From the NCBI GenBank assembly GCA_964444755.1, contig CAYUIF010000001.1:238402-302401 (forward strand): 64,000 nucleotides of DNA, written 5' to 3'. Positions 12,225 to 62,750 of this stretch are shown here, piece by piece. The DNA is from an uncultured Alphaproteobacteria bacterium. Its GTDB lineage: Bacteria; Electryoneota; RPQS01. The notes beneath the pieces are model-generated. The model saw only the letters and a list, made by a program, of their open reading frames with translations. It searched no databases and was not told the origin of the DNA. Within the stretch, counting starts at the first letter, position 1. Every line of letters begins with the position of its first letter. The position numbers were made by a program, and so were the translations under genes.

Positions 12225-12660
12225 TTCACTTTCCGCTTGCGTGGTTAACACTCCAATATATGAAATTGAATGAAAGTCGCACGGTATTACCGTACTTAAA
12301 ACGAGAAATCGTAAAGGAGGCATGATATTGTACTAAATAGTCCATTAATGGGTCATGACTGTGCAGTTTCTAACACACTTCCAGACTTCTTCACTATTCA
12401 TATGTTAATCTGACAATTCCGAGATTATTTTTGGGGAATGCCATTCTTCTCAAATTACAAATATTTTAAACTTTTCATATTGAAGATATTGCTTCACCAT
12501 ATAAAGTCCTTATCTTTTTATTAGGTGTAAAGGAACAGGTTGGATTGATATTGTTCTAAATTTCACAAATAGAGTGCTGGTGTTCGTATTCTCAGGCATG
12601 CGTCCTCTCTGCATTGCGTATGCGAATACCGCGTATGTTCCTGACCAGGAGGAGAGATCA

Positions 12661-23389: not shown

Positions 23390-23695
23390 TTACCAGCGAT
23401 TACCGCCGCCGCCACCGCCGCCCCGCCGCTCGGTGCGACGCGGACGTTCGGACTGCGGACGCGCTTCGTTGACCAGAATGTTGCGGCCCTTCAGATCGGT
23501 TTCGTTCATCTTGGTGATGGCTTCACGAGCTTCCGCTTCGTTCGGCATTTCCACAAAACCAAAACCCTTGGAACGGCCGGTCATACGGTCGGTGATGACG
23601 CTGGCCCGATCCACGGCGCCGTGGGCTTCAAAAGCTGCACGAAGATCGTCTTCGGTCACGGTGTAAGGGAGATTCCCAACGTAGATGTTTACCAT
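23390..23695 (-). CDS. RRM-domain RNA-binding protein with Gly-rich tail
   Basis: MVNIYVGNLPYTVTEDDL... RNP-1 KGFGFVEM. RRGGGGGGGNRW C-terminus. The ORF-track start at 23866 is rejected in favour of the conserved MVNIY start. Confidence 0.9.
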   Translation of the reverse strand: MVNIYVGNLPYTVTEDDLRAAFEAHGAVDRASVITDRMTGRSKGFGFVEMPNEAEAREAITKMNETDLKGRNILVNEARPQSERPRRTERRGGGGGGGNRW

Positions 23696-23982
23696 GATTT
23701 GATCCTTTCCGGACTTGGGGATGGTGCCCCGAACTTTGCCACCTTTACCATCGCATAGCCGAAAGGGACTCGAAACATCTACCTCCCCACGTGACAGGGC
23801 CTGCGAGAGGGTCCCCATGGACCCCACCTTTACAATGTCAATTAACAGAGCACAATGAGTGCCCATACAGACAGCGACAATATACCGAACAAAATGTTGA
23901 ATCGCAAGTGAAAAGTGAGCTTAAAATACTCTATTTGATGAGTAATTATGCAACACGTTTCATGCAAACTATATGGTGTCGG

Positions 23983-24957: not shown

Positions 24958-25139
24958 AAGAACTCCCGTCGGCATAAGTGGCGATGACCCAGTGTACGAA
25001 GATTTCCGCGCATTTTCAAATTCTACTTACGTTACACAATTCATGCCGAAATCCGGCGGTCCGCTCAATAAATTTAAGGCGATAGGTGGAGTGGCATGGA
25101 AATATTTTTTTGCCGAACGAACTACCTAAGAACAGAGAA

Positions 25140-25260
25140 AAACTGAAAATCTGAAATACCGAAACGCCGAAATTCGAACTATAGTTGATTTCTCAAGAGG
25201 GGCAATCCAGCCATAAAAGATATGAACATTTGTTCAGATTGTCAAGAGGAAGGTGAAGAA
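25140..25260. promoter_or_regulatory. Duplicated intergenic module containing a GAAC-N4-GTTC (Cheo/LexA-like) palindrome
   Basis: ctgaaaatctgaaata ... aagatatGAACatttGTTCagattgtcaagagga. A near-identical module lies at 61345-61445. Confidence 0.45.
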
Positions 25261-25289
25261 ACGATAAGCGATGAACCGGATTTGTAGCG

Positions 25290-25546
25290 CCCAGCTTGCT
25301 GGGCTTTGTTTCGCCGAGTGGGGTTTGTTTCCCCCTGCTTCAGCGGGGGGATGAAAGGGGGGCGTATTCCGGGCACAGCACGCAGTGCCCCTACGGAAAA
25401 GAACGGGCGGGTACGCTTGCACTTTACCCGCCCCTACGGAAGACGGCCATAATGAATTATGGCCCTACAAAACGCAAGATGTTACAATCGGTAGGGGTCG
25501 TTCGAGAACGACCCGCGGGCGGTTCGCGAACCGCCCCTACAGCACG
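25290..25546. repeat. Composite REP/BIME-like element
   Basis: ttcgccgag...; gggcacagcacgcagtgcccctac; ggccataatgaattatggccctaca; cgcgaaccgcccctacagcacgtt. This block is about 80% identical to 51215-51480. Confidence 0.6.
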
Positions 25547-27061: not shown

Positions 27062-27560
27062 GGTACGGTCTTTAGTAGGCGGTTAGCCGGGCAGGTTGAG
27101 AACCTGCCGCGGCGAGGTCGTTGCGAGAAGATTCCGGGCAGATCAGGGGATCTGCCTCGGCGAAGACGGGCACGGCATGCCGTGCCCCTACGGAAGACGG
27201 CCATAATAAATTATGGCCCTACAAGACGGACGCGATGAATCGGCCCCTACAGGACGATGCGTTGCAGTTGTTCCGGCGGGGTAGAAAACCCCGCTCGGCG
27301 AATACATGGGCACAGCACGCTGTGCCCCTACGAAAACAAAGATTCCGGCCAGGTTGCGGTCTGCGACCTTAACCACGGCTCGGCAAGATCGTTACGTGAA
27401 GATTCCGGGCAGATCAGGGGATCTGCCTCGGCGAAGACGGGCACGGCATGCCGTGCCCCTACCGCGTGTGCGATTCCGGCAGGGGTAGGGACCCCGCTCG
27501 GTGAATACGCGTGCAATGGTGCAATATGCAGGGCTTTACAAGGAAAGGCAATTGAATCCC
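27062..27560. repeat. REP/BIME-like element array
   Basis: gattccgggcagatcaggggatctgcctcggcgaa (twice); gggcacggcatgccgtgcccctac (twice); ggccataataaattatggccctaca; ttccggcggggtagaaaaccccgctcggcgaa; gggcacagcacgctgtgcccctac. Confidence 0.65.
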
Positions 27561-37083: not shown

Positions 37084-37247
37084 ACATCGCTTGCGTTTAT
37101 GCCCGGAAATAGCCCAGAGTTTTGTGTTTTCTATCTCTGTCCACGAACGATAAACAAATCGTAATGAAAGTCTCACTTGCGATATAACAATGGGAGTAGT
37201 ATCTTACCAGCGTATGGTAATGACTTGATGCTAAGGATTTATTGATC

Positions 37248-37772
37248 ATGAATACTTGTCAAGCCTGTGGAATCCGCCCCGCCGTGGTGGAATTCGTGCA
37301 AGTGACCGGCGCTGAACGCCGCGAATTATCGTTGTGCCGCGAATGCGCGCTGTCCATCGGTATGCGGTCGCAGGTCGAAGCGTTTCAACGGCTTTCGCAG
37401 TTGCTGCTGCACCATAGCCCGTTGACCGAAGTCACCGAAGAAATGCGCGCCTCGCTGGCTGTCACCTGTACACATTGCCAGATGGCGTTTGAGCAGTTTG
37501 TCAAAACCGGCTTGTTGGGCTGTCCGCATTGTTATGAAGAATTCCACGATTTGCTCAAGCCTGTGCTGCGGCGGATGCACGGCGTGACCCGCCTTACCGA
37601 CGAAGCGTCTGAACATAGCATAAAACCGATTCGATCCCGCGAACCGATTATCGCTGAGGCTCGTTCGTCCGACGAACAGCGCGCGCAACTGGAAATGGAG
37701 TTGAATCTCGCGCTTCTGGAAGAGGATTACGAACGCGCGGCCAGCCTGCGTGATCGCTTGAAGAAGCTCTGA
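37248..37772 (+). CDS. mcsA: McsA-like protein (zinc fingers + UVR domain), activator of protein-arginine kinase
   Basis: Two CxxC...CxxC pairs (CQACG..CRECA; CTHCQ..CPHCY) and a C-terminal UvrB/C motif RAQLEMELNLALLEEDYERAASLRDRL. Confidence 0.75.
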   Translation: MNTCQACGIRPAVVEFVQVTGAERRELSLCRECALSIGMRSQVEAFQRLSQLLLHHSPLTEVTEEMRASLAVTCTHCQMAFEQFVKTGLLGCPHCYEEFHDLLKPVLRRMHGVTRLTDEASEHSIKPIRSREPIIAEARSSDEQRAQLEMELNLALLEEDYERAASLRDRLKKL

Positions 37773-37931
37773 CGCGGCGCGGGGTGGGAACAATCATGAT
37801 CCCTCCCGCGTTGCCTAAAAGCTGTTGATGCGATCAGCGCAGTCAATGATCAATACCGAATTCGCGGGTCTCTACGGCCCGCGAATCTATACTCAGGATA
37901 TTCTTCACGAACCTTTAGCGAGAAATTCTCC

Positions 37932-39014
37932 ATGCCGGAACGTCCTGCTAACTCCCCCTTAATTTTGCTTTCCGAATATCCTGCTTGGGCCAAAGCGGGC
38001 GGCGACGAGTCGGCGGTGGTGCTCAGCACGCGTGTACGCATCGCGCGCAATATCAAGGGCGAAGTTTTTCCGGGACGCATGGATACCGAAGGCCGGATTC
38101 GTGTGATGCGCACCGCCTCGCGCGTGATCGCTGCGCTGCCCGAAGCCGAAGACGGCGTATTCTATTCGCTGGCCGCGTTGACTCCCGTCGAGCTAGCCGT
38201 GCTCATCGAACGGCGCGCGATTTCGCCGCAGCTCGCGCGGGATGAGCATCCGCGCGGCGTGTTCGCGTGGAAAGATTTGGATCGCGCGATTATGATCTGC
38301 GAGGAAGACCATGTGCGCGTGACCGACATCGTGCCCGGCTTGGCGCCGCGCCAGGCGTGGGAAAACGTCATGCCCGTGGTTGAAAATCTCGAACAGCATT
38401 TCGAATTCGTGAAGGACGATTCCCTCGGCTACTTGACCGCTTGTCCGGCCAATATCGGGGCGGCGGTGCGGACCTCGCTGTTTTGTCATTTGCCCGCCTT
38501 GGTCGCCACCGGCGGCATGGAATCGCTGGCCTCTCATGTGTCTGATGCCGGGTTTACAATTCGCGGATTTTGGGGGGAAGGGTCGGAGGTTTTAGGCAAC
38601 ACGTTTCAATTTACCGACGGTCCCGGTCTTTCACACAATGTGCAAGATATGCTCGCTCGGATAGATATTCTTGGTCAGGAAATCATGGAACGCGAGGCGA
38701 TTGCCCGCATTGAATTGCAGAGTCAGCGCCCCGCCTTGCTCAAGGACAAAATTGCCCGAGCGGTGGCTATTTTGCAGTCTTGTCGGGCCTTATCCGGCGG
38801 CGAGACCATGGCCTTAATTTCCACCATTCGGTTGGGATTGGATATTGGATTCATTGAAGGGCTAAAACGCGAAACTATTTCAATGTTAACATTTGATTTA
38901 GGGCGCGGTCATTTGAAGTGGCGGGGCTACGATAACGGCATTCCCGATGGCCGATTAGTGGAACGGGCGAACCGGGCCCGTGCGGTCTTTGCCGAGGCCC
39001 GATTTGTGGGATAG
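37932..39014 (+). CDS. mcsB: Protein-arginine kinase (ATP:guanido phosphotransferase family)
   Basis: Phosphagen-kinase active-site motif CPANIGAAVR. 360 aa. Lies between mcsA and clpC. Confidence 0.85.
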   Translation: MPERPANSPLILLSEYPAWAKAGGDESAVVLSTRVRIARNIKGEVFPGRMDTEGRIRVMRTASRVIAALPEAEDGVFYSLAALTPVELAVLIERRAISPQLARDEHPRGVFAWKDLDRAIMICEEDHVRVTDIVPGLAPRQAWENVMPVVENLEQHFEFVKDDSLGYLTACPANIGAAVRTSLFCHLPALVATGGMESLASHVSDAGFTIRGFWGEGSEVLGNTFQFTDGPGLSHNVQDMLARIDILGQEIMEREAIARIELQSQRPALLKDKIARAVAILQSCRALSGGETMALISTIRLGLDIGFIEGLKRETISMLTFDLGRGHLKWRGYDNGIPDGRLVERANRARAVFAEARFVG

Positions 39015-39212
39015 TTTGTGGATAAATGATCTATAATTAGCGGCAAAGTTTTTGCTCATAGTAACGATTGATGCGAACCGGTCCGGGAGCAATGAGGGCG
39101 GGCCGGTTCGCAAAATGGCCGGCTTGCTTCTCTGATTCGACCTTCTTACATTAAGTTTTAGACGGCCACGCAACTTAAACCAACTCGGCTGTTCTACTCC
39201 TTCGAGGTTACG

Positions 39213-41678
39213 ATGCAAAACAAGTTTTCGCTACGTGTTCAGCAAGTGATTCAGTATTCGCGTGAGGAAGCCCTGCGGCTCGGCCACGATTTCATCGGCA
39301 CCGAGCATTTGTTGTTGGGAATTATTCGGCTGGGGGACGGCTTGGCCGTGCAGATTCTCCACAATCTGGGCTGTGATCTCGAAGAGATTCGGGAATCCGT
39401 GGAAGAGATGGTGGATACCTCCAAGGGCACCATGAAAATCGGCAACATTCCGTTTACCAAACGGGCCGAAAAAGTGCTCAAGGTTTCGTATATCGAAGGC
39501 CGCAACTATTCTTCCGACATCATCGGCACCGAGCATTTGTTGCTGGCGCTGCTGAAGGAAGAAGACAGCATGGCCGCTCAGGTGCTGCACGGATTCAATG
39601 TCACCTACGATGCGGTAAAGGGCGAACTCGACAATCTGCTGCGCGGCAGCGGACAAGCCCAGCCTTCGGCGCCGGCGGAAAAATCCAAGACTCCCAATCT
39701 CGATCATTTCTCCCGCGATCTGACCAAACTGGCGCGCGATAATCAACTCGATCCGATCATCGGCCGCGAAAACGAAATCGAGCGCGTGGCGCAGATTCTT
39801 TCGCGCCGTAAAAAGAATAACCCGGTGCTGCTGGGCGAACCCGGCGTCGGCAAGACAGCGATTGCCGAAGGACTCGCGCTGCGCATCGTCCAGCAAAAAG
39901 TCTCACCCGTGCTCTATGGCAAGCGCGTGGTAGCCCTCGATCTGGGTTCCATCGTGGCGGGCACCAAATACCGCGGTCAGTTCGAAGAGCGCATTAAGGC
40001 GATTATGACCGAAATCGAGAAGAGTCCCAATATCATTCTCTTCCTCGACGAGCTGCATACCATCGTCGGCGCGGGCAGCGCGTCCGGCAGTCTCGATGCG
40101 TCCAATATGTTCAAGCCCGCGTTGGCGCGCGGCGAGTTGCAATGCATCGGCGCGACCACGCTGAAGGAATACCGCCAGTCCATCGAAAAGGACGGCGCGC
40201 TGGAACGCCGTTTCCAGAAAGTCATGGTGGATCCGCCGTCGGTGGACGATACCATTGCGATTCTGAAGGGACTGCGCGAAAAATACGAAGAGCATCACGG
40301 CGTCAAATATTCCGATGAAGCCATCGAACTTTCGGTGCAGTTGGCCGAGCGCTACATTACCGACCGCTTCCTGCCCGATAAGGCCATTGACGTGATGGAC
40401 GAAACCGGCTCCTGTGTGCGGATTTCCCACATCGTAATTCCCGAAAAGGTCGTGGAAATCGAAAAGGAAATCGAAGCCGTCCGCCGCGAAAAAGAAGATC
40501 TGGTCAAGCGGCAGGAATACGAAAAAGCCGCCATGCTCCGCGACAAGAAGATGAAGCTTGAAGCGATGCTCAAGGAAGAGAAGGACAAGTGGGAGAAATC
40601 CGAAACCCGTCCCGCTCTGCAAGTGTCGCTGGATGATATCGCCGGCACTGTGGCGCGCATGACCGGTATTCCCGTGCAGCGCGTTGCTTCCGGAGAAGGT
40701 GAACGGCTGCTGCATATCAAGGACGAACTGTCCAGCCGCATCGTCGGTCAGGATGAAGCGTTGGACGTCATCGCCCGCAGTCTGCGCCGCGCCCGCAGCG
40801 GATTGAAGAGCCACGCGCGGCCCATCGGCAGCTTCATGTTCCTCGGCCCCACGGGTGTCGGCAAGACCGAACTCGCGTTGGCTCTCGCCGAGTATTTGTT
40901 CAACGATCCCGGCGCGCTCATTCGCATTGACATGAGCGAATACATGGAGAAGTTCAACGTCTCGCGGCTCATCGGTTCGCCGCCCGGCTATGTGGGTTAC
41001 GATGAAGGCGGCCAGCTTACCGAGCGCGTGCGTCGCAAACCCTACAGCGTCGTGTTGTTCGACGAAATCGAGAAAGCCCATCCCGATGTGTTCAACATCC
41101 TGCTGCAAGTGCTGGATGCGGGCGAACTCACCGACGGCACCGGGCAGAAGGTGGACTTCCGCAATACGATTCTGATCATGACCTCCAACCTCGGCACGCG
41201 CGAAGCGGCCAAGAGCATGGAGTTCGGTTTCGCGGGCGCAAAGACCGTCAGCTTCGACAAACTGCAGGGCAAGATGCTGGAAGAAGTCAAGATCATGTTC
41301 CGTCCCGAATTCCTGAATCGCTTGGACGAGATGGTGGTCTTCCGCATGCTCGAACGCGAATCCATTGACAAGATTCTTACGCTTTACATGGACGACGTCA
41401 ACCACCGCCTCAGCGATCGGCACTTGAAGATCGTCCTCAATCAAAAAGCCCGCGATCTCATCATTGACAAGGGCTATAAGCCGGAAGTGGGCGCGCGGCT
41501 GCTGCGCCGCACGGTGGAACGGGTGCTCGAAGATCCGCTGGCTGAAGAGCTGTTGAAGGGTCGCTTCACAGACGGCTCGACGGTATCGGTTAACGTCAAG
41601 GACGAGCAACTGACCTTCCGCGAGCAGCGCGAAAAAGTTCCCGAAAACGCCGCCGAGACCACCGCCCAGAGCGACTGA
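39213..41678 (+). CDS. clpC: ATP-dependent Clp protease ATP-binding subunit ClpC (class III)
   Basis: Two Clp_N repeats. Two AAA+ modules (GEPGVGKT; GPTGVGKT). UVR-like middle domain. 821 aa. Confidence 0.93.
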
Positions 41679-41771: not shown

Positions 41772-44081
41772 ATGAAAACGCTCCTAAGTTTCATTCTTAT
41801 GTGCTGTTTTGTAGGAGCAGCCATCGCAACTTCTGTTTTGGAGTGGTACCGTTTGTTGCCCAGTCTTGGTGAAGCAAGTAGTGTAGTATGTTTGTCCGAT
41901 GGTGGATTTGTGGTTGTTGGAAATGGCGTAATCATGCGATTGACTTCGCGGGGGGACACATTATGGTCTCAATCCTTCAGCAGTCCAAGCGGAGGATGGG
42001 CCGTCAATCATAAAGTCATTTTTGACTCTGATTCAAACTTAGTCGTTGCAGGTGAATGGTATAATGCAGGAATTAGAGCCTTTATTCGTAAGCTTTCATT
42101 ATCAAGCGACCTGATCTGGTGCCATGAATATATTCTTACAGAGTATACGGGTTTCAATGATATTAAGAATACTCCCGGAGGCGGTTTTGTTGCGGTAGGA
42201 AAGTATCTTTATATAAATGGATTCATCGCTCGCTTGGATGAGCAGGGTGACACCCTGTGGACAAGAATTATTCCCAACGAATTCATTCCCAGTGGAGTGA
42301 TTGTATCACCGGATTCTGCCTATCTCATTTCTGGCTATACATCAAATCCGGACTATCCAATTTTTGCCAGATACAGTCTTGAAGGAAATCAAGATTGGAT
42401 CAGGTATTGCGGAGGTATGGGAAGATCAGCCACGATCTTGCTGGAAAATTCTCAATTGCTAATCGGTTTCGGAACAGCAAGTTATTCTGATTACAGTGGA
42501 CAACCGCGATGGTCCTCCATGAGTACGGATAATGGATTAGCCTGCACAGCGGGAGTAGTACCTTCTCCTACCAGCCACATTAGCGATGCCATGCCGATTT
42601 CAAATGGATATCTGTTAGCGGGATGGACTGGTTATAGCACGTATGATCACTTGGGCTATATTCTGAAAGTAGATAGTTTCGATCCATCACGAGTAGTCTG
42701 GACGACCACAATACATACCGGAACATCGTACAATCGTGAATGGTCACAATTTAATGGAATTGCATCAACTCTTGATGGGGGATTTGTTGCCGTTGGACGA
42801 GGTACAGGAGGAACACATCAGGACTGGTTAATTGCGAAATACTGCCCCGAAGATGCTCCAGCTGGCGGATTCACTATTATCCACCCCGGACCACCCGATT
42901 GGGGCTTCTCGCTTGGTTGGTTAGGTGGAGAGTTAGATACAATCGCCTTTACGAATATTAGTGACGGCGCCTATGGCGATGTTACGGGTTCGGCTGCGGC
43001 CGACTGGCATATTCTGAATAATGGAGACGGTAATGACGGGGATTCGATCATCTTCGTTGCATCCCAACCTTTCGGCGGTTGGGAAGTGGATACGTTTTGG
43101 ATCAGGAATATGCAAGACAACCACTGCACGATTTCCTATATTGCGGAATGTCCCAAAGGAATTATTGGTTTGGATAATGGAGGACACGTTGAGATTCTCG
43201 CTGAAGGACTATATCACTCCGGTTTTGCAGTTGTCCGTGATACGGCTGCCGTACGGAAAATCATCTTTTCGCAATTTCCCACTGGTACAACCGGCAGAAT
43301 AACTGGTGTGGCATCGCTGACTTGGGAAATGATGTCAAATGGCGATGGAAACAATGGCGATTCGGTAATCTTCTTTACTGGCGTTCCGCTTTTGACCGGT
43401 TCAGTGGATACCTTTTGGCTTGATAGACCTGAAGGCAGCGGAATCGCAGATTGGTCCATCGGTTGCAACTCCGGAACAGCGCGGGTATTTACGGGCATCG
43501 TAGATTCGGTGCGATTTGCGGGACAGTACTTGGCGAATGGCATTTCTCTTTCGCTTACGACATACAATGAATCATATCTTTCTTGCTTCCGTGTTTTTGG
43601 CAAGCACACAACAAGTGCACCGTGGGTTGAGATTGGCGTTATTCCTGCCACGAATGACTCTGGTCCTAACCACTATTTGCTCAATGGTGGAGTCCGCGGG
43701 ATTGGATTCCAATTCATGGTTATAGCTGAGGATTCATTTGGTGTCCAGCGAGAGTATGATGATCAAGTTCTGATTGTCGGTCAAAATGTGCCGACTGATA
43801 TGAAGAATATATATCTGTCAACTGAGTTTAAACTCTCTTCCTTCCCCAACCCCTTCAACCCATCCACTACCATTTCGTTTTCGCTTCCCAAATCCGCAAT
43901 CACCCGCTTAACGGTCTATGATCTCTTAGGCCGTGAAGTGGCGGTATTGACAGATCATTTGTTAGAAGCGGGCGAACATAATCTGCAATTCGATGGTTCT
44001 GATTTACCCTCCGGTCTCTACTTCGCCCGTCTGCAATCCGGAGATTTCGTTACGACTCAGAAGCTCTTATTGGTGAAATAA
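41772..44081 (+). CDS. T9SS-sorted beta-propeller-repeat protein (769 aa)
   Basis: Signal MKTLLSFILMCCFVGAAIA. Repeated DGGF.V.G / GDTLW blades. C-terminal FPNPFNPSTTISFSLPKSAITRLTVYDLLGREVAVL...LLLVK. Confidence 0.8.
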   Translation: MKTLLSFILMCCFVGAAIATSVLEWYRLLPSLGEASSVVCLSDGGFVVVGNGVIMRLTSRGDTLWSQSFSSPSGGWAVNHKVIFDSDSNLVVAGEWYNAGIRAFIRKLSLSSDLIWCHEYILTEYTGFNDIKNTPGGGFVAVGKYLYINGFIARLDEQGDTLWTRIIPNEFIPSGVIVSPDSAYLISGYTSNPDYPIFARYSLEGNQDWIRYCGGMGRSATILLENSQLLIGFGTASYSDYSGQPRWSSMSTDNGLACTAGVVPSPTSHISDAMPISNGYLLAGWTGYSTYDHLGYILKVDSFDPSRVVWTTTIHTGTSYNREWSQFNGIASTLDGGFVAVGRGTGGTHQDWLIAKYCPEDAPAGGFTIIHPGPPDWGFSLGWLGGELDTIAFTNISDGAYGDVTGSAAADWHILNNGDGNDGDSIIFVASQPFGGWEVDTFWIRNMQDNHCTISYIAECPKGIIGLDNGGHVEILAEGLYHSGFAVVRDTAAVRKIIFSQFPTGTTGRITGVASLTWEMMSNGDGNNGDSVIFFTGVPLLTGSVDTFWLDRPEGSGIADWSIGCNSGTARVFTGIVDSVRFAGQYLANGISLSLTTYNESYLSCFRVFGKHTTSAPWVEIGVIPATNDSGPNHYLLNGGVRGIGFQFMVIAEDSFGVQREYDDQVLIVGQNVPTDMKNIYLSTEFKLSSFPNPFNPSTTISFSLPKSAITRLTVYDLLGREVAVLTDHLLEAGEHNLQFDGSDLPSGLYFARLQSGDFVTTQKLLLVK

Positions 44082-44225
44082 TCCGCCGTGGTCGGTCTCC
44101 CGACCGGCCATGGCCCATCGTCATTATTCTTCAGGAGGTTCTCATGAAATCGGCAACTGTGACCTGTCTCCTGTTCTTATCCGTATCCCTTTCTTTTTCG
44201 CAACCCCCCGATACCCTGTGGATGC
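43840..44225 (+). repeat. Cassette junction: conserved C-terminal-domain coding block + intergenic RBS + conserved signal-peptide coding block
   Basis: The ~240-nt C-terminal-domain coding segment recurs at 45327-45568, 46752-46992 and 48050-48291 (about 80-90% nt identity). The RBS/signal-peptide block (ttcaggaggttct.atgaaatcggcaactgtgacctgtctcctg...) recurs at 45583-45680. Confidence 0.75.
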
Positions 44226-45568
44226 GCACCTATTACGCTGATATGGGAGGCAATGCGAACGCACTGTGTCTCACCCAAGACGGCGGTTATGCTGTAGCCG
44301 GTATCTGCTGCTTTGCTGGCTACCACAACTTCTTCTTTGGTGGTTTTGTTAATAAACTGGATCATTCCGGCCAGACGGAATGGACATGGAGTATTTTAGG
44401 CAGTGCGCTCGCCAACAGCTGCTGGGCGAATGACGTGATTTCGACGGCAGACGGCGGTGTGGTGGCCTGCGGCAGTGGCAACTACTGGGGAGGCGGTCTC
44501 GGCCAAGGTCCGGAAATGTACCTCTGGGTAGTGCGATTAAATGCCCAGGGAGATACCCTATGGTTTTACGAGCAAACGGAAAGTAATACTGATTGGTATG
44601 GCGGCGGTCGGGCGATTGCGACCGCGCCCGACGGATTCCTCATTGCCGGATCATATTTTACGTCGCTGACAAAGCTGGACACCGCTGGGAACCTGCTCTG
44701 GCAGCGCAATTGGGGCATGTCGCTAAAGGATATCACACCGACTCCCGATGGGAATTTCGTGTGTGTCGGATCGTATGATACCAGCGCATCCCGCTGCCTG
44801 ATCGTTAAAGTCACTCCCGACGGCGATACGCTGTGGACGCGCGATTGTAATACGGGATGGGATGAACAGGTGCGTGCGGTGACCACCACCTTTGGCGGCG
44901 GACTGGCCATCTGCGGAACGGGTAACTATCCACCTATCGGCGTTGATACCTTCTTGGGGATCTTGGATAGCAGCGGCAATTATCTGGTACGACGGGCTTA
45001 TGAACACGAGCATTCTTATGCCATAGATCTCTGCCAACTCGCCGATTCGGGATTCATCCTGGTGGGCGGAATTACACCGACCTACCCTAATCCGAGGCAG
45101 ACCTTTGTCGTTCGCACGGCACCGAATGCCGATGCGATGTGGACCAAGCTGTGGGATGAGACTTTTGAAAACTTTGCCAACTCCGTCGTACAGGATACCG
45201 ACAGCGGCTTTGTCTTGGTCGGCAAATGGGGAAATGATTACTGGTATATCTCCAAACTGGAATACGATCTGGTGGATATAGATGAGTCGCCGACCGCTCG
45301 CATTCCCGAGTCGTTTTCCTTGATGGCTTTTCCCAATCCCTTCAATCCGTCTACTACAATTTCCTTTTCGCTTCCGAAAAGCGCTCAAACCCGCTTAACG
45401 GTCTATGATCTCTTAGGCCGCGAAGTGGCGATACTGAGCGACGGAATGCTGGAAGTGGGCGAACACCAAATGCAATTCGATGGTTCAGCCTTGCCTTCCG
45501 GTCTCTACTTCGCTCGCTTGCAATCCGGAGATTTCGTTACGACTCAGAAGCTCTTATTGGTGAAATAA
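44144..45568 (+). CDS. T9SS-sorted beta-propeller-repeat protein (474 aa), paralog
   Basis: Signal MKSATVTCLLFLSVSLSFSQPPDTLW is identical to that of the next gene. Repeated DGGY / GDTLW blades. T9SS C-terminal domain. Confidence 0.8.
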   Translation: MKSATVTCLLFLSVSLSFSQPPDTLWMRTYYADMGGNANALCLTQDGGYAVAGICCFAGYHNFFFGGFVNKLDHSGQTEWTWSILGSALANSCWANDVISTADGGVVACGSGNYWGGGLGQGPEMYLWVVRLNAQGDTLWFYEQTESNTDWYGGGRAIATAPDGFLIAGSYFTSLTKLDTAGNLLWQRNWGMSLKDITPTPDGNFVCVGSYDTSASRCLIVKVTPDGDTLWTRDCNTGWDEQVRAVTTTFGGGLAICGTGNYPPIGVDTFLGILDSSGNYLVRRAYEHEHSYAIDLCQLADSGFILVGGITPTYPNPRQTFVVRTAPNADAMWTKLWDETFENFANSVVQDTDSGFVLVGKWGNDYWYISKLEYDLVDIDESPTARIPESFSLMAFPNPFNPSTTISFSLPKSAQTRLTVYDLLGREVAILSDGMLEVGEHQMQFDGSALPSGLYFARLQSGDFVTTQKLLLVK

Positions 45569-45597
45569 TCCGCCTTTATCGCTCTTCAGGAGGTTCT

Positions 45598-46992
45598 ATG
45601 AAATCGGCAACTGTGACCTGTCTCCTGTTGTTATCCGTATCCCTTTCTTTCTCCCAACCCCCCGATACTCTCTGGACACGGCACTTTTCTCCACTTTGGC
45701 CAGACGCCGGTGGTCTGCGCAGTGTTCATGCGCTGCCCGATGGCGGTTTTATGGCGGTAGGACATTGCTGCTATAATCTGTACCACTTCTTCTATAATGC
45801 TGCATATGTCGGACGGTATGATTCAGAGGGAAATGCCGTCTGGGAGAATCATTATTGGGGAACCAGCGGCTCAACTCTCGGAATTGGAGCAATCGCCTTC
45901 GATGTTTGGCCATTGCCCGAGAGCGGGTGCATTGTGGCGGCGGGGATCGGAGCAGGTTGGCCATGGCTTCCAGCCACAGTCATGCGTGTAAATGAGGGAG
46001 GTACTATTGAATGGGCATTTTCGAGCACTACATATGGCATAACTGAAATGCGCGCGGTCAGTATGACTACTGAAAATGTAGTGGCCGCCGTTGCCAGTGA
46101 TTCAGGAACAGTCTTTCGTTTCAGTCTCGATGGTGATACATTATCGAGGACCGACCTGTATCCTGCCGACCTGTTCGCGACGCTTCCCACACCCGACGGC
46201 GGATTTGTGGTGGCGGGGAGCGATACCTTTCCCATCCGTTATGCGTTCTATCTGGCTAAGTTTGACGCCCACGGCGATACGATGTGGACGCGGCGGCATT
46301 CGGTATCCACCTTGGGCGGCGGCGCGTATGCCCTGTGCCATGCCCCGAATGGCGGATTCATGCTGGCGGGCACGGCGCTCATGCCCGATACCACGCTGCC
46401 GGAATTTGCCGCCGTGGTGATGGTGGATTCCACCGGCCAATTATTGAGCCAGCATATCTATGGAGACATTCCACCCGTAATCGCGGCGGATCGCTGCGCG
46501 GAAGGCGGCTACATCCTGCTCGCCGACCGGCTCCTGCGCATTAACGATGAGGGCGATACCTTGTGGACACGCACCCTGCCCTGCAACGATTGCTTCTACA
46601 GTGTCATCCAAACCGCCGATAGCGGCTATCTCGTGGCCGGGCAGATTACGGTTGATCTAAGACAAAAAGCGTATTTAGCGAAGTACACACGGGAAGGTTT
46701 ACCCGTCACGGATCATCCAGCTGCTCTGCCTGCTGAATTCCGACTGATAGCCTATCCGAATCCGTTTAATCCATTAACCACGATTGCATTTTCGCTTCCT
46801 AAATCCGCACTCACCCGCTTGACGGTCTATGACCTCTTAGGTCGTGAAGTGGCGGTGCTGACGGATCAAATGCTCGAAGCGGGCGAGCATCTTGTTTCGT
46901 TTGACGGCACAGCCCTGCCATCGGGACTATATTTTGCTCGACTGAGAAGCGGCGAGTTTACTGCCACGAGAAAACTTTTGCTTGTAAAATAA
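45598..46992 (+). CDS. T9SS-sorted beta-propeller-repeat protein (464 aa), paralog
   Basis: Same signal peptide. Divergent middle region. C-terminal domain ...AYPNPFNPLTTIAFSLPKSALTRLTVYDLLGREVAVL...LLLVK. Confidence 0.8.
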   Translation: MKSATVTCLLLLSVSLSFSQPPDTLWTRHFSPLWPDAGGLRSVHALPDGGFMAVGHCCYNLYHFFYNAAYVGRYDSEGNAVWENHYWGTSGSTLGIGAIAFDVWPLPESGCIVAAGIGAGWPWLPATVMRVNEGGTIEWAFSSTTYGITEMRAVSMTTENVVAAVASDSGTVFRFSLDGDTLSRTDLYPADLFATLPTPDGGFVVAGSDTFPIRYAFYLAKFDAHGDTMWTRRHSVSTLGGGAYALCHAPNGGFMLAGTALMPDTTLPEFAAVVMVDSTGQLLSQHIYGDIPPVIAADRCAEGGYILLADRLLRINDEGDTLWTRTLPCNDCFYSVIQTADSGYLVAGQITVDLRQKAYLAKYTREGLPVTDHPAALPAEFRLIAYPNPFNPLTTIAFSLPKSALTRLTVYDLLGREVAVLTDQMLEAGEHLVSFDGTALPSGLYFARLRSGEFTATRKLLLVK

Positions 46993-47043
46993 CCATAATT
47001 GAATTACATTCTATGTTGAACTACACCTTTGTCGGGAGGGACA

Positions 47044-48291
47044 ATGAGAATCATTCTGCGCGCCGCATTAATCCTGTTTTTGTCGGTCACGGCGGTTAAG
47101 GTTTATGGATCTGTAGAACTGGAGACGTTTCGAATATGGGGGATGGAGAACAGTCTTTCCGTAGGATGGAGTACCAGCTCCGAAACCGCTAATGCCTTTA
47201 TAGAATTGTGGAGAGCGGAAACAGAGTCGGGTCCTTATGTTCTAATAAGCATTGAACAAGGACATGGTACGACAACCAATACGAGTAGTTACTGGCACTA
47301 CAACTCGGGACTCTTGCCGAATCAGCGATATTTCCATTATTTGATCGCCGTTGATACCGCCGGATACCGCGAGATTGTCAGCGATACGGTATCCGAGCGA
47401 ACTGCTCCGATAAAAATTAATGGGATACCGGGCTATCCGAAATGTCCCACGGGATATCGGGTTTCGTGGACGGTTCATTATGAATATGATATTCTGGACT
47501 ACTCGCTTCGTCGTGGACCATACGGTGGATGCAATACTGATATTGCCGTCATCCCGTCACAGGGTAATACGGACTCGATTCGTACGTATTACTATACCGA
47601 TCTCGATGCGCCCTTGCGCGTGAGCACTTACTGCATCGTCGCTCGTCGTATGGACTCCACGACTTATGCACCGCTCTTCTTCTATATTCCAGAGGAACCG
47701 GTAGCTATAGCAAGCTTGGATTCCTTTGCCGTCACACCAGCATCTTCGAATGTCGAAATATTCTGGCGAACAAATTATGAAAGCTGGCTGCGCTGTTACG
47801 AAGTTCAGCGGCGACGTACGAGCGATTCCAGCTATACCGTAGTCGCGGAATTGCAGGGTGCAGGATATTATGCCTACGATCGCAGTTACACGGTGGTTGA
47901 TACAACTCTCACCGCTGGTGGCACATACAATTATCTGGTCGGCTATACGGATGCCTACGAGGTCTTTCGCGTGTTGTGCGATTCTACGGTGGAGGTAGTG
48001 CTTTCCGGTGCGGAGTATGAGCCGCTGGCACAATCGTTTGCTCTGTCCGCTTTCCCCAATCCGTTTAATCCAACGACCACAATTTCGTTTTCACTTCCAA
48101 AATCCGCCCTTACTCACTTGATAATCTACGATCTCTTAGGCCGTGAAGTGGCGATATTGACGGATGGCATGCTCGAAGCGGGGGAGCATCGCTTTTCGTT
48201 TGACGGCTCTGATCTACCGTCGGGATTGTACTTTGCTCGACTGAGAAGCGGTGAGTTGACTGCCACGCATAAACTCCTATTAGTGAAATAG
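47044..48291 (+). CDS. T9SS-sorted protein with FN3/Ig-like body (415 aa)
   Basis: GGGAGGG RBS. Signal MRIILRAALILFLSVTAVKVYG. Same-family C-terminal domain ...FPNPFNPTTTISFSLPKSALTHLIIYDLLGREVAIL...LLLVK. Confidence 0.75.
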   Translation: MRIILRAALILFLSVTAVKVYGSVELETFRIWGMENSLSVGWSTSSETANAFIELWRAETESGPYVLISIEQGHGTTTNTSSYWHYNSGLLPNQRYFHYLIAVDTAGYREIVSDTVSERTAPIKINGIPGYPKCPTGYRVSWTVHYEYDILDYSLRRGPYGGCNTDIAVIPSQGNTDSIRTYYYTDLDAPLRVSTYCIVARRMDSTTYAPLFFYIPEEPVAIASLDSFAVTPASSNVEIFWRTNYESWLRCYEVQRRRTSDSSYTVVAELQGAGYYAYDRSYTVVDTTLTAGGTYNYLVGYTDAYEVFRVLCDSTVEVVLSGAEYEPLAQSFALSAFPNPFNPTTTISFSLPKSALTHLIIYDLLGREVAILTDGMLEAGEHRFSFDGSDLPSGLYFARLRSGELTATHKLLLVK

Positions 48292-48519
48292 TCCTTGTAC
48301 CCGGTGGTGACTCTCCAGAGTCACCCCGATACTTGAAACACAACCGCAACAAATATACATGAGGCACCGGGGTCAATCCCCGGTGCCTTTGCTTGGAAAA
48401 GCATTGTCCTCCGGTTTGCCTATCGGTGATTCCCTCCGTATATTTAAAGTCTATCCTTTAAGTGCCGAACCGATTTCGACCCGATGAAGTGAATTTGCGC
48501 GGGTAATGGGAGTCAGCGA

Positions 48520-50919
48520 GTGCGATTTTTCGCGGTAAGCCTTGTTATTGTTCTATTTTGCATGGGTCTGGCCGATGCGGGAACCCTCACGCCCGGTCTA
48601 ACCGATGCCTACTCGCGGGCTGCCGATTCCGAGTTGCTGCCCGTTCTGATCACGCTGGCCGATTCCGCCTCCGCCTCCCGAATGGCCGAGCAATTGGCCG
48701 CTGAAGGTCTGCCGCTGGCGCAGATTCATCAGCGGGTCATGGATGCTCTGACCTCCCAAGCCGCCGCTCGGCCAGCGGAACTGCTCCGGCTGCTGGAAAC
48801 CATGACCAGCAATGGCCAAGCCCGGGCGGTTCGACCGTTCTGGCTTGCCAATGTTATTGCCGCCGAGCTGACGCATTCCGCCGCCGAGACCTTAGTCGAA
48901 CAAACCGGCATCGAAGAAATCGGACTCGATGAAACCGTCACGCTGCAGCGCAATCAACCGCTGCTGTCCGACGGCGGCGCGCAAAGCCTGAGCGCCATCG
49001 GCGCGCTGGATGTGTGGCTGAAGGGCACGCGCGGCGATGGCCGTATTGTGTGCGTGATCGGCGACGGTCTTGCTTCAACTCATCCGGCTCTCAAAAATAA
49101 CTGGCGCGGTAAAACGGCCCCGGCGAGCGAATGCTGGTATGATAAAAACGGCGGCCCTCCCGCCTCCTGCGGCAGCGAGAGTAGTTATCTGCTGGGTCTG
49201 CTGTGCGGCGCGCCCGCTGGGAATAATCCCGCCACCGGAGTTGCGCCCGCCGCTAATTGGATCGCCGCTAATATTTTCTGCGCGGGAACCGCCCGGCTTT
49301 CCGATGTGCTCGCCGCTTATCAGTGGGCGGCCGATCCCGATGGCAACTCCGCTACCGTGAATGACGTGCCCGATGCGATTTTAAGTCCGTGGCAAGTGAA
49401 TGGCGATTGCTTAGGCGCGGAGCCATCGCATGTATGGCAATTCGTTGCCAATCTTGAAGCGCTGGGACCGTTGCCGGTCTTTGCCGCCGGATCACTGCAC
49501 GCTCCGGCTTCGCTTCCGCAATGTTTTACCATCGGCAATCTTGACATCCGCGGCGGCCAGTCCATGCCCGAAGCCTCGGCTCCGCAAGGTCCGTCGCCCT
49601 GCGATCCGCGCATCACCAAGCCCGATCTTTCCGCCCCCGGCGCCGCCGTGCATACCACCGGTGAAACCGGCTACGTGGATGTGACCGGCGCGCCCGCCGC
49701 CGCCGCTTACGTCGCGGGCGCTGTCGCGCTGATCCGGCAGACCAATCCGCAGCTTTCCGCCACGGCCATAAAAAATCTGCTGACCGCTTCCGCTAAAGAT
49801 CTCGGCACTCCCGGTGCCGATAACCGCTTTGGCAGCGGCTTGCTGGATATTTCCAAAGCGGTGGAAATGGCGGTCTCCCGCGAGAATACCGGCAGCGTGC
49901 AGGTGACTGTGAAGTGTGACGGCAAGCCGCTCTCCGGCGCGCGCGTGGTGTTGTCAGGAAGTGGCGGTACTTTCAGTGCAAATACCGATAACGGAGTTGC
50001 GCTTCTGAATCGTATCCCCGCTGGCGAAAGCTATACCATCACCGTGGGCCGCTTTGGCTATACGGTGGATGCGCCCGCCGAACCCGTTGTTGTGAACAAA
50101 GGCGAAACCGCGCGCGTCACCGCCGCGTTGGAACCGTCATACGCTGATAATGCCGAATTCGATCAAGGCTGGAGTTTGGGAATTGCGGGAGACAACGCCA
50201 CCAGCGGGCAATGGCTGCGGGCGATTCCGGTGGGTTCGAAAGTCACAGGCCGGCCCGTGCAGCCCGAGATGGATGCCGATCCCGACGGGAAGTACTGCTT
50301 CGTGACGGGCAATGCCGACTCTCGCGATGCCGAAGCCAGTCAGGCGGATGTGGACGGCGGTCGCACCACCCTGCAATCGCCGCAGTTTGATCTGCGCGAT
50401 GTCGAAGCGCCGGAACTCTCTTTCAGCTACTGGTACAGCAACAACCAAGGCACGAATCCCGGCGAAGATGCATTCCGCGTGCAAATTTCTTCCGATGGCG
50501 GCGCGACATGGACGGACTTACTCACGACGACGCAATCCACCACCGGCTGGACGACACAAAAATACTCGCTGGACAGTTACGTCACCGCCACCGAGCGCAT
50601 GAAATTGCGGTTCATCGCCGAAGACCGCGAGCCGGGATCGCTCGTGGAAGCGGCGGTGGATGCGATTCGCATCGTCGGCACCCCCTCCGCACCCGAAGCG
50701 CCGCAGGATCTCACGCTGGACGTGCAATTCAATCAAGTCATTCTCCGCTGGCACAGTTCCAAGGGCGCGACCGCCTATCGCGTGTATCTTTCCGGTAATG
50801 CCGACAAGGTGGTGGATCCTGCCAATCTCTATGCCACTGTTTCCGATACGACCCTGCTGGTTCCCATGAGCGATATCCCCTACGTGCAGTTCTATTTCCA
50901 AGTGACTGCCGTTCGATAG
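48520..50919 (+). CDS. Subtilisin (S8)-like secreted protein with apparently degenerate catalytic triad + Ig-like + FN3 domains
   Basis: GTG start. Signal MRFFAVSLVIVLFCMGLADA. S8 scaffold recognisable (VCVIGDGLASTHPAL corresponds to VIDTGxxxxHPDL; VTGAPAAAAYVAGAVAL corresponds to GTSMAAPHVAG), but the Asp, His and Ser positions are not conserved. C-terminal FN3-like domain (YRVYLSG). Confidence 0.7.
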   Translation: MRFFAVSLVIVLFCMGLADAGTLTPGLTDAYSRAADSELLPVLITLADSASASRMAEQLAAEGLPLAQIHQRVMDALTSQAAARPAELLRLLETMTSNGQARAVRPFWLANVIAAELTHSAAETLVEQTGIEEIGLDETVTLQRNQPLLSDGGAQSLSAIGALDVWLKGTRGDGRIVCVIGDGLASTHPALKNNWRGKTAPASECWYDKNGGPPASCGSESSYLLGLLCGAPAGNNPATGVAPAANWIAANIFCAGTARLSDVLAAYQWAADPDGNSATVNDVPDAILSPWQVNGDCLGAEPSHVWQFVANLEALGPLPVFAAGSLHAPASLPQCFTIGNLDIRGGQSMPEASAPQGPSPCDPRITKPDLSAPGAAVHTTGETGYVDVTGAPAAAAYVAGAVALIRQTNPQLSATAIKNLLTASAKDLGTPGADNRFGSGLLDISKAVEMAVSRENTGSVQVTVKCDGKPLSGARVVLSGSGGTFSANTDNGVALLNRIPAGESYTITVGRFGYTVDAPAEPVVVNKGETARVTAALEPSYADNAEFDQGWSLGIAGDNATSGQWLRAIPVGSKVTGRPVQPEMDADPDGKYCFVTGNADSRDAEASQADVDGGRTTLQSPQFDLRDVEAPELSFSYWYSNNQGTNPGEDAFRVQISSDGGATWTDLLTTTQSTTGWTTQKYSLDSYVTATERMKLRFIAEDREPGSLVEAAVDAIRIVGTPSAPEAPQDLTLDVQFNQVILRWHSSKGATAYRVYLSGNADKVVDPANLYATVSDTTLLVPMSDIPYVQFYFQVTAVR

Positions 50920-50979: not shown

Positions 50980-51480
50980 GATGCACCCGTCCGCGGGTGC
51001 CCGGAACTTTCGGAATTCGCCGCGGCAGGCTCTCAGCCTGCCCGGCTAACCAGCACAATCGTTGGTCATCCTGAACGCCGTGAAGGATCTCGCTTACGCC
51101 ACCGTGGCGGGTGTGTCACCCGCCCGGTAATATGCGGGTCTCCCTCCGTTTACGGGGGGACGGAAGGGGGGATTCGCCGAGGCAGATCCCCTGATCTGCC
51201 CGGAATCTTGTAGCGCCCCGCTTGCTGGGCTTTATTCGCCGAGTAGAGTTTGTTTCCCCCTACTTTAGTGGGGGGATAAAAGGGGGGTGCATTCCGGGCA
51301 CAACCCGCTGTGCCCCTACCGAAGACGGCCATAATGAAGTATGGCCCTACAAAGTGCGGGAATTTTACATCTGGGAGGGGTCGTTCGCGAACCGCCCCTA
51401 CAGCACGTTGCATCGCAGTAATGATCGCCGCGGCAGGTTCTTAACCTGCCCGGCTCACCGCGAATAATCGTTTGTCATCC
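50980..51480. repeat. REP/BIME-like element array
   Basis: ttttcgccgatgcacccgtccgcgggtgcccggaac; cgcggcaggctctcagcctgcccggct; ttcgccgaggcagatcccctgatctgcccggaatc; gggcacaacccgctgtgcccctac; ggccataatgaagtatggccctaca; cgcgaaccgcccctacagcacgtt. Confidence 0.65.
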
Positions 51481-53967: not shown

Positions 53968-54328
53968 GGTACGGTCTTTAGTAAGCAGTTAGCCGGGCAG
54001 GTTGAGAACCTGCCGCGGCGATGTCGTTGCGATGCGGTTCTTCCGGCGGGGTAGAAAACCCCGCTCGGCGAACACACGAGTGTCATCCTGAACGTAGTGA
54101 AGGATCTCTCTTCGATGCAAGGGATTCTGGACGCCCGCTGACGCGGTATCCAGAATGACACATTAATGTCACGTTCCGGGCACCCGGGGACGGGTGCCGC
54201 GGCGAAGACGGGCACGGCATGCCGTGCCCCTACCAAACGGACGGTACAACCCCCCTTTAATCCCCCCGCTGAAGCAGGGGGAAATATATACACGGGCGGG
54301 TGACACACCCGCCACGGTGATGATAGGT
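53968..54328. repeat. REP/BIME-like array including a MITE-like copy (54081-54160)
   Basis: The first ~60 nt after the gene start are nearly identical to 27062-27120 (shared upstream block). ttccggcggggtagaaaaccccgctcggcgaa; gggcacggcatgccgtgcccctac; ccccccgctgaagcaggggg. Confidence 0.6.
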
Positions 54329-60801: not shown

Positions 60802-61266
60802 TTATTCGAAGTCGTAGATAAAGGCCGGAGCGATACCCATGAGCCGCAGATAAACCGTCAGTTGACCGCGGTGATGAATAATCTCATCGCCGACAAAACT
60901 GAGGAGCTGCCAGCCGGGGAAATCCATACCCCACGCGTTGATGACGGCGGCGATTTGCGCATCGTTCAGTTTGTGGAACGTGGCGAAGCCGGTTTCGACT
61001 TGCGCATCCATCCACTTCAGCAGTTCGGCCTTGTCGGTGAACTTAGGCTCGACATCCTTGGACGGATCCTGCTTGCCCTCCATGACCATTTGCGGAGCGA
61101 GTACGACATACTGATGCATGTGCACGCACAGTTCGCCGACGGAACGGACTTCGGGAGTGGGGCGGAAATCCAGTTTGTCGGCGGGAATGAGTTCCACTTG
61201 TTTGCGGGCATTCTTGAAAATCATTCGCAGATAGCCCCAATAGGCTTCTAAATCGGCCTTGTTCAT
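60802..61266 (-). CDS. DinB-family (DinB_2) protein
   Basis: 154 aa with the H...H..V........EIIHHRGQL pattern. A Cheo-like box lies about 143 nt upstream. Confidence 0.8.
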   Translation of the reverse strand: MNKADLEAYWGYLRMIFKNARKQVELIPADKLDFRPTPEVRSVGELCVHMHQYVVLAPQMVMEGKQDPSKDVEPKFTDKAELLKWMDAQVETGFATFHKLNDAQIAAVINAWGMDFPGWQLLSFVGDEIIHHRGQLTVYLRLMGIAPAFIYDFE

Positions 61267-61344
61267 GAGCGGATCCTTAAGTTGATGTTGGTATCAGGAA
61301 AGCGGAAATGTTTTTTGACCAAACGAACTGCGGAAGAGTAGGAA

Positions 61345-61445
61345 AATTCTGAAAATCTGAAATAATAAAAGGCTGAAAAAGGCAAGTGCACAAGGACAGA
61401 ACAAGATATGAACATTTGTTCAATTTGTCAAGGGAAATAATCAGG
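61345..61445. promoter_or_regulatory. Second copy of the intergenic module with GAAC-N4-GTTC palindrome, upstream of the DinB-family gene
   Basis: ttctgaaaatctgaaata ... aagatatGAACatttGTTCaatttgtcaaggga; palindrome at 61409-61422. Confidence 0.45.
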
Positions 61446-61499: not shown

Positions 61500-61600
61500 A
61501 TGAGGAGGATTGCAAGGGAAAGACGGGCGGTTCGCGAGCCGCCCATAAAGGAAAGGGCACAGCACGCTGTGCCCCTACGGAAGAAATATTTGATGATTGC
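61500..61600. repeat. REP-like elements
   Basis: gggcggttcgcgagccgccc; gggcacagcacgctgtgcccctacggaag. Confidence 0.55.
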
Positions 61601-62504: not shown

Positions 62505-62750
62505 CGGGCGCACACATGGGTGCACCCCTACAGAACACGGCCATAATGAATTATGGCCCTGCTACTACAGACGGCCTCCGGCCGTCTGATGGATCCAACG
62601 GGCGCGATGAATCGGCCCCTACGGGATGCCGGGCGGGTGGCACACCCGCCACGGCAAAGATTCCGGCGGAGCGGAGACGCTCCGCTCGGCGAATCCCCCC
62701 CTACCCCCCCGCTGAAGCAGGGGGAAAAGATTCCGGGAAAGACAATCGTG
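62505..62750. repeat. REP/BIME-like array
   Basis: cacggccataatgaattatggccctgctac; gggcgggtggcacacccgccacggc; ttccggcggagcggagacgctccgctcggcgaa; ccccccgctgaagcaggggg. Confidence 0.6.

Follow-up and report, generated by a model that had tools for sequence, protein, structure and literature searches.

In Firmicutes and Actinobacteria, the SOS repressor LexA recognizes the motif GAAC-N4-GTTC, variants of which are found in Chloroflexi and Cyanobacteria (PMC4951493). The LexA motif of Verrucomicrobia is inverted and reads TGTTC-N4-GAACA (PMC4951493). The SOS regulators of Bacteroidetes bind GGA-N5-TCC or CTAA-N5-TTAG (PMC8565304), and a direct repeat is bound by the SOS regulator of Balneolaeota (PMC7739468). 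The founding member of the DinB family, dinB of Bacillus subtilis, is a classical SOS gene that carries a LexA site; the DinB/YfiT genes of Deinococcus are damage-induced as well, though not via LexA (PMC4338110). No LexA motif is described for Calditrichota/KSB1 in the literature found. A palindrome of the GAAC-N4-GTTC type is present twice in a stretch of 64,000 nucleotides from this lineage (contig CAYUIF010000001.1; the whole stretch is referred to as the window). One copy is located upstream of a DinB-family gene, the other upstream of a gene for a protein carrying a sorting domain of the type IX secretion system (T9SS). The palindrome is probably part of a repressor-operated promoter that is native to dinB and was duplicated, together with its leader, in front of the T9SS gene.

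An exact string scan finds TGAACATTTGTTCA at two positions of the 64-kb window only, 25223–25236 and 61409–61422, as the original prediction had stated, and each of them is intergenic. No further places appear when up to two mismatches are allowed. Counted on both strands the palindrome gives four matches, compared with 0.36 expected, and none of 100 shuffled windows reaches this number. The core GAAC-N4-GTTC occurs five times (1.06 expected), and the remaining three sites (15340, 54872 and 61672) are within coding open reading frames (ORFs). The two intergenic copies are about 36 kb apart and precede unrelated genes, both on the minus strand. Copy A (61409–61422) is located 143 nt upstream of the ATG at 61266 of the DinB-family gene, which is the distance given earlier. 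Copy B (25223–25236) lies upstream of a gene for a Por_Secre_tail protein, 266 nt from its ATG at 24957.

Alignment of both regions on the minus strand reveals a common module. A conserved module of about 100 bp had been proposed; the module is real, but it is larger (~135–155 nt) and consists of three blocks. Block 1, CTTGACAAnnTGAACAAATGTTCATATCTT, agrees at 28 of 30 positions between the copies. Block 2, TATTTCAGATTTTCAG, is a U/C-rich repeat in the 5' leader and agrees at all 16 positions (61349–61364 in module A and 25143–25158 in module B, both on the minus strand). Its reverse complement, CTGAAAATCTGAAATA, had already been recognized as part of the module. Block 3, AGTTCGTTYGGnnAAAAAAnATTTCC, agrees at 22 of 26 positions, a value that is reached by none of 2000 shuffles. 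This leader element reads AGTTCGTTTGGTCAAAAAACATTTCC in module A (61304–61329, minus strand), where it ends 38 nt from the ATG, and AGTTCGTTCGGCAAAAAAATATTTCC in module B (25098–25123, minus strand). A scan of the 64-kb window found blocks 2 and 3 nowhere else. Blocks 1 and 2 are separated by ~20 additional nt in copy B. This insert contains a weak second box, CGAACTATAGTTGA (25175–25188), which is 48 bp from the main box of module B and has two mismatches to TGAAC-N4-GTTCA. The weak box alone is not significant, as the window has 30 sites with up to two mismatches compared with ~27 expected. Beyond the two modules and this weak site, nothing above chance was found among weaker boxes in the window.

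On the minus strand, which is the strand of the downstream genes, both palindromes sit in the 17-nt spacer of TTGACA-N17-TATCTT, a sigma-70-type arrangement. This placement had been missed by the original prediction. In a promoter scan, both copies match the consensus at 10 of 12 positions with a 17-nt spacer. Module A comprises the -35 hexamer TTGACA at 61426–61431 (minus strand), the palindrome at 61409–61422 (minus-strand sequence TGAACAAATGTTCA) and the -10 hexamer TATCTT at 61403–61408 (minus strand). The corresponding elements of module B are TTGACA at 25240–25245, TGAACAAATGTTCA at 25223–25236 and TATCTT at 25217–25222. The palindrome fills 14 of the 17 spacer bases and touches the -10 hexamer, which is 136 nt from the ATG in copy A and 259 nt in copy B. 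TTGACT-N17-TATCTT precedes the glutamate dehydrogenase gene of the window, and other window genes have similar hexamers. Thus, the organism appears to use classical -35/-10 promoters. A look-alike of the palindrome, AACAttttGTTC, is found in the spacer of the RRM gene promoter, TTGCGA-ttcaacattttgttcgg-TATATT (23867–23895, minus strand). It has the wrong spacing and one mismatched arm, and is probably not a site.

The DNA around DinB orthologues was fetched from other Calditrichota/KSB1 assemblies to serve as a footprint sample. The cluster at 90% identity that contains the window DinB has a member annotated as 'Calditrichota bacterium', and other relatives are annotated as 'candidate division KSB1'. 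Locus L174 is a close relative from the same cluster, in which the synteny with aconitase is kept. Both L174 and the window copy read TTGACA / AAT-TGAACAAATGTTCA / TATCTT. A stretch of 37 nt at block 1 is identical in the two loci and the segment from block 3 through the ATG differs by one base, whereas the ~60 nt between blocks 1 and 3, including block 2, have diverged. Orthologues with 64–76% protein identity keep the same design of promoter and box. L178 (76%) reads CTCTTGACT / TTT-TGAACAATTGTTCA / TATATT with TTGACT as -35 hexamer, and L173 (64%) reads TTGACA / TT-TGAACTTTTGTTCA-G / TATATT. In L179 and L180 (68%) the promoter geometry is retained and the box is degenerate (TGCACCTATGTTTA). 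The -35 hexamer is identical in L174 and is TTGAC(A/T) in L178, L173 and L179; the -10 hexamer of the orthologues is TATATT or TATTTT at the same place.

The arrangement is also present in front of a different gene. Locus L096 of the related metagenome-assembled genome (MAG) CAYORN01 reads TTGACA / AAC-GGAACAAATGTTCA / TATATT (in longer form CTCTTGACAAAC-GGAACAAATGTTCA-TATATT), with a second, degenerate box upstream of the -35 hexamer. The downstream gene encodes an unrelated protein of 215 amino acids, for which no family match was found, and lies beside a Type ISP methylase gene. Loci L096 and L170 are from assembly GCA_964406405.1 (contigs CAYORN010000002 and CAYORN010000005), which is labelled 'uncultured Alphaproteobacteria'. 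This assembly has DinB, the aconitase synteny, the T9SS protein family and the promoter type in common with Calditrichota/KSB1, and the Alphaproteobacteria label is probably wrong.

In the five distinct good sites, the arms TGAAC/GTTCA deviate from the consensus at 1 of 50 positions. The centre of the box (AAAT, AATT or TTTT) and its flanks vary freely, and the position of the box relative to the hexamers even varies by one base. The sequence of promoter spacers is normally not conserved. Conservation of the arms amid changing centre and flanks, within such a spacer, is therefore the signature of a protein-binding site, and the position of the box centre near -20 points to an operator for a repressor. 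These comparisons speak for a regulatory site that looks functional, and against a chance occurrence of the palindrome.

The leader shows a different pattern of conservation in each of its blocks. Block 2 matches at 13 of 16 positions in the close relative L174 and is absent in more distant orthologues. It is of a U/C-rich repeat type (family D17) that is also found just upstream of other window genes. Block 3 matches at 25 of 26 positions in L174 and at 19 of 26 in L178, and neither value is reached by any of 2000 shuffles. It is located 38–39 nt from the ATG in window dinB and L178 alike. Judged by its retention in L178 at this fixed distance, block 3 has long been part of the dinB leader within the sub-clade. 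By eye, its spacing suits neither a sigma-54 promoter nor a Bacteroidetes-type one (-33/-7), and both readings were rejected. A reading as CtsR heptad (GGTCAAA) was rejected as well, since there is no tandem repeat and no CtsR box in the whole window. Folding of the leader is less stable than that of shuffled sequences (z = +2.09 for A and +0.49 for B; +1.2 and +1.7 for blocks 2–3 alone). A scan of the whole window against Rfam at the gathering threshold gave no match. Permissive scans yielded two sub-threshold matches, both outside the modules, and no family in either module.

The gene predicted to be transcribed from module A (60802–61266, minus strand) encodes a DinB-family protein of 154 amino acids. 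Pfam assigns it to DinB (PF05163, 4e-14) and DinB_2 (PF12867), in agreement with the earlier naming as a DinB_2 gene. A promoter and terminator scan found no terminator-like site between the promoter of module A and the dinB ATG. A second DinB-family gene of the window (2559–3023, minus strand) is 48% identical to the first one. It overlaps the end of the gene upstream and has neither box nor module. The gene behind module B (23983–24957, minus strand; leader of ~250 nt) encodes a secreted protein of 324 amino acids with a signal peptide and a T9SS C-terminal sorting domain. No family match was found for this protein beyond the T9SS tail. The protein belongs to a family of ~325 amino acids that is well kept across Calditrichota/KSB1.

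In locus L181, which contains an orthologue of the secreted protein (63% identity; synteny with RRM and ZU5 kept), the gene starts 38 nt behind an unrelated gene, and its upstream region contains no box and no module. This upstream comparison comprises one orthologue, L181, which is not the closest one (P0193, 98%). Since the module is absent from L181, the best reading of copy B is a duplicate specific to the lineage. Copy B contains blocks 1 and 3, both of which were ancestrally part of the dinB region, so that duplication of the dinB promoter and leader is the simplest history. Both the age and the direction of this event are inferences.

The following mechanism appears probable. Block 1 would be a sigma-70-type promoter with its spacer filled by a 14-bp operator, TGAAC-N4-GTTCA, that is recognized by a dimeric repressor whose gene lies in another part of the genome. 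With the repressor bound, the promoter would be closed to RNA polymerase. Upon inactivation of the repressor by its signal, the gene would be transcribed with a long, unstructured, U/C-rich leader, presumably starting at block 1. The promoter and operator would belong natively to the DinB-family gene of the Calditrichota/KSB1 lineage. In the lineage of the window, duplication of the promoter and most of the leader, including block 3, would have placed the gene of the T9SS-secreted protein under the same control. No box is found in the dinB orthologue lineages L170/L172 and L176/L177, which weighs against this mechanism as a general rule; control of dinB by the operator is not universal. Regarding the repressor, a LexA-type, DNA-damage-responsive protein is the best single guess and is proposed tentatively. 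A sensor of the ArsR/SmtB type and a DUF134 or other helix-turn-helix protein are both considerably less likely and are rated equally. The remainder is shared by readings without an operator and by possibilities not listed here.

For comparison with known SOS promoters, reference genomes were scanned with TTGACA-N4-GAACA-N2-TGTTC-N-TAT. The scan gave at least 119 loci, which is a comparison set and not a copy count for Calditrichota. Nearly all of the 119 listed loci belong to Firmicutes, Chloroflexi, Dormibacterota and Actinomycetota, and L096 was also found. The genes behind the listed loci encode LexA, Y-family polymerases, Pol III alpha and radical-SAM/HhH repair proteins. Placing a Cheo box (GAAC-N4-GTTC) between the hexamers of TTGACA-N17-TATnnT is thus a real SOS design, and a frequent one. 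Geometry and register of the window promoters are those of the listed SOS promoters in Firmicutes, Chloroflexi and Dormibacterota. The GAAC-N4-GTTC core is present in the window, L173, L178 and L096, and the box overlaps the promoter. The parallel drawn by the original prediction, in which a box of this LexA type regulates B. subtilis dinB within the SOS response, holds (PMC4338110).

Several observations weigh against LexA. The flanks of Cheo-type boxes follow the consensus C/A...G/T, whereas those in the window, L173 and L178 are T...A. Among the 119 listed promoters, 98 have C/A...G/T and only two have T...A. The neighbouring phyla of the Fibrobacteres-Chlorobi-Bacteroidetes (FCB) superphylum, Bacteroidetes and Balneolaeota, use unrelated motifs (PMC8565304, PMC7739468). 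Three gene families are found behind the box and none of them is core SOS. Furthermore, neither the 64-kb window nor ~40 kb of the relatives' DNA contains an S24/LexA gene, and a LexA profile built from seven sequences gave no Calditrichota/KSB1 match among the best 120 of 7980. The suggestion that the DinB gene is SOS-controlled is borne out as far as the operator-like site and the real SOS geometry are concerned; the T...A flanks do not fit, and the 14-mer itself is not diagnostic. The SOS interpretation is plausible but weaker than the sequence alone had suggested. It is possible, though somewhat doubtful, that a Calditrichota/KSB1 LexA retains a Gram-positive-like TGAAC-N4-GTTCA box unlike its FCB neighbours and that a T9SS protein was recruited to the damage response. 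If so, SOS control of a DinB-family gene would be common to Bacillus and this distant phylum, and in one lineage the response to DNA damage would have gained a type IX-secreted protein through a copy of the whole SOS promoter with its leader.

A scan of metagenomes with TGAACAAATGTTCATATC as query locates the identical 14-mer upstream of arsR-family genes, upstream of DUF134 genes and between glnA- and gltB-like genes. Because the same 14-mer occurs at ArsR and candidate DUF134 operators, the palindrome is not diagnostic for LexA. TGAACA-N2-TGTTCA is the core of the 12-2-12 operators of SmtB/ArsR proteins, e.g. AATACCTGAACA-GA-TGTTCAAGTATT (PMC8790569). Accordingly, a metal or redox sensor of this type might bind the operator, and the genes of the DinB-family metalloprotein and the secreted protein would be de-repressed by metal or oxidation and not by DNA damage. 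The core inverted repeat TGAnnA-N2-TnnTCA is present in the window site and matches the published one (PMC8790569). In the metagenome contigs L137, L140, L151, L154 and L169, the exact 14-mer precedes arsR-family genes (Pfam HTH_5) accompanied by Cys-rich peptides, and in L123 it is divergent from an arsR-family gene. The T...A flanks suit this family better than they suit LexA boxes. However, the outer arms are missing: ACAAAT/ACAATC match the complement of AAGATA at 2–3 of 6 positions. In L173 the sixth base of one half-site is altered (TGAACT) while TGAAC/GTTCA is kept, and in the arsR contigs the site is located downstream of the -10 hexamer, not in the spacer. Additionally, phmmer searches with two ArsR queries revealed no arsR-family gene in the window or the relatives' loci, Pfam annotation of the window genes shows no arsR-family or metal-resistance gene, and neither the window nor the relatives' loci contain a gene for metal efflux. 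An ArsR/SmtB sensor is thus considered unlikely. In L137, L140, L151, L154 and L169, the site has the full 12-2-12 form ATATATGAACAAATGTTCATAT and is positioned just after the -10 hexamer. It is followed by an ORF for a Cys-rich peptide (MCGCSSKKCNCCC...) and then by the arsR-family gene. These low-GC contigs appear to contain a metallothionein-like/ArsR unit.

Short AT-centred palindromes serve many repressor families, and the operator could be bound by a DUF134 (UPF0251) protein or by another helix-turn-helix repressor responding to an unspecified signal. The palindrome precedes PF02001 genes in L084, L156/L167, L163 and L166, which represent at least four unrelated lineages, and is divergent from such genes in L136 and L139. 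The L084 promoter, TTGACATTATGAACATATGTTCATATAAT, has the exact geometry of the module. This similarity partly follows from searching with the exact 18-mer, and the link to DUF134 rests on co-occurrence in other phyla. No such gene is present in the window or in the relatives' loci, and we know of no described targets of DUF134. A regulator of this kind is about as improbable as an ArsR/SmtB sensor. With the outer arms missing and no arsR or DUF134 gene nearby, neither of these alternatives is favoured. TGAACA-N2-TGTTCA, which abuts the -7 box TATCTTTG where the promoters of DUF134 genes are of the Bacteroidetes type, is a candidate autoregulatory operator of DUF134, a family of no known function. 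Locus L031 (minus strand) of a Sulfurimonadaceae MAG contains five TGAACA-N2-TGTTCA-like boxes within ~180 nt. They are located ~150 nt upstream and just downstream of position 4824, directly upstream of an RNase P RNA-like sequence.

The two remaining explanations do without an operator. The original prediction had offered a small dispersed repeat as an alternative to SOS control. This is half correct: copy B does look like a duplicate of the dinB promoter and leader, but nothing hints at a mobile element with many copies. A non-regulatory mobile repeat, resembling a miniature inverted-repeat transposable element (MITE) or a repetitive extragenic palindromic (REP) sequence and containing palindrome and hexamers incidentally, would account for two copies in front of unrelated genes. 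It would also account for similarity that runs ~100 nt past the palindrome and for the fact that both copies adjoin clusters of REP-like, GC-rich hairpins, of which this genome has many. There are, however, just two copies in 64 kb and no copy of the module in metagenome contigs of the Joint Genome Institute (JGI) or in viral contigs, where one chance match is found in a T4-like phage. Neither terminal inverted repeats nor convincing target duplications are seen. The 13-nt direct repeats on either side of copy A agree at 11 of 13 positions, with ~0.5 such pairs expected by chance, and are not kept in L174. Moreover, block 1 is present at the orthologous dinB positions of distant relatives without blocks 2 and 3, unlike a recent mobile insertion. 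A mobile repeat is therefore very unlikely.

The least probable of all explanations is a structured RNA in the module, i.e. a riboswitch, an attenuator or a small RNA extending from block 1 to after block 3: blocks 2 and 3 are in the predicted transcribed leader, block 3 keeps its distance from the dinB start codon and other promoter-like sites between module B and its gene could give rise to a separate transcript, but the folding is weaker than that of shuffles, Rfam yields no match in the modules even at permissive thresholds, and neither a terminator-like site after block 3 nor a leader peptide ORF is present.

The GC-rich hairpin families of the window (e.g. GGGCACAGCACGCTGTGCCCCTACGGAA with at least nine copies) are clustered intergenically and are REP-like. 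Clusters are located at 25280–25540, 27110–27520, 51235–51350, 54040–54240, 61523–61582, 62507–62670 and elsewhere. Both module copies are just downstream of such clusters, and some of the hairpins score as terminators.

A repressor-operated dinB promoter with a duplicate in front of the T9SS gene represents a conventional repressor-operator arrangement in a little-studied phylum and leaves the current understanding unchanged. Calditrichota/KSB1 are a widespread, almost entirely uncultured group, and to our knowledge nothing is known about their transcriptional regulation. The consensus TGAAC-N4-GTTCA inside TTGAC(A/T)-N17-TATNTT provides a handle for defining a regulon in this group. Most likely, a scan with this consensus would expose the regulator itself via autoregulation. 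If the regulator is LexA, this would close a gap in the account of how the SOS box evolved within the FCB superphylum. The duplicated promoter and leader would be a natural example of the recruitment of a gene into an existing regulon.

Other regions of the window have notable features of their own. The RRM/Rbp gene (23390–23695) has a GC-rich leader of ~150 nt (23696–23845, minus strand), whose counterpart in L181 is at 2575–2718. The leader is ~85% identical between the window and L181, although the neighbouring protein is 63% identical and the DNA further upstream cannot be aligned. No Rfam family was found in this leader and its folding energy is no better than that of shuffles. The leader may be autoregulatory. 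Region 37242–41678 contains McsA-like (UVR motif) and McsB-like (ATP:guanido phosphotransferase) genes, followed by an unannotated ORF of 821 amino acids (39213–41678) that we take to be ClpC-like. Such an arrangement is typical of Firmicutes and is here present in a Calditrichota genome; the CtsR heptad repeat is absent from the 64-kb window. An ORF of 1476 amino acids (12574–17004) is built of six repeats of ~670 nt. Four or five tandem paralogues at 41772–50919 have a conserved 3' segment of ~257 nt in common. The repeat families D1, D3 and D9 are those of these two regions.

Compared with known systems, the site is similar to the Cheo box of B. subtilis DinR/LexA, Firmicutes, Actinobacteria and Chloroflexi with respect to the core, the AT-rich centre, the placement in the spacer and the DinB-family gene downstream. 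It differs in the T...A flanks, in the Calditrichota/KSB1 host and in the other targets, which are a T9SS cargo and a 215-amino-acid protein. The LexA motif of Verrucomicrobia has the same five-base half-sites, the same 4-bp spacer and likewise forms a 14-bp palindrome. Tandem sites of which the second is degenerate are common in Verrucomicrobia (PMC4951493), as observed at L096 and perhaps in module B. The order of the half-sites is reversed in the window (TGAAC...GTTCA), so that a dimer would contact the DNA differently. The operators of SmtB, ZiaR, AztR and AzuR have their core in common with the window site. In contrast to these SmtB/ArsR operators, the window site lacks outer arms, is positioned in the spacer and not after the -10 hexamer, and has no arsR or metal gene nearby. 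Cases in which homologous promoter regions precede genes of one genome that are not themselves homologous have reportedly been described by Matus-Garcia and co-workers as 'mobile promoters'. The modules are unlike these in that two copies are known here, there is no signature of mobility and the leader was copied as well. They resemble 'mobile promoters' in that ~135 nt of promoter and leader are common to two unrelated genes, with one copy at the ancestral (dinB) position and the other one most likely lineage-specific.

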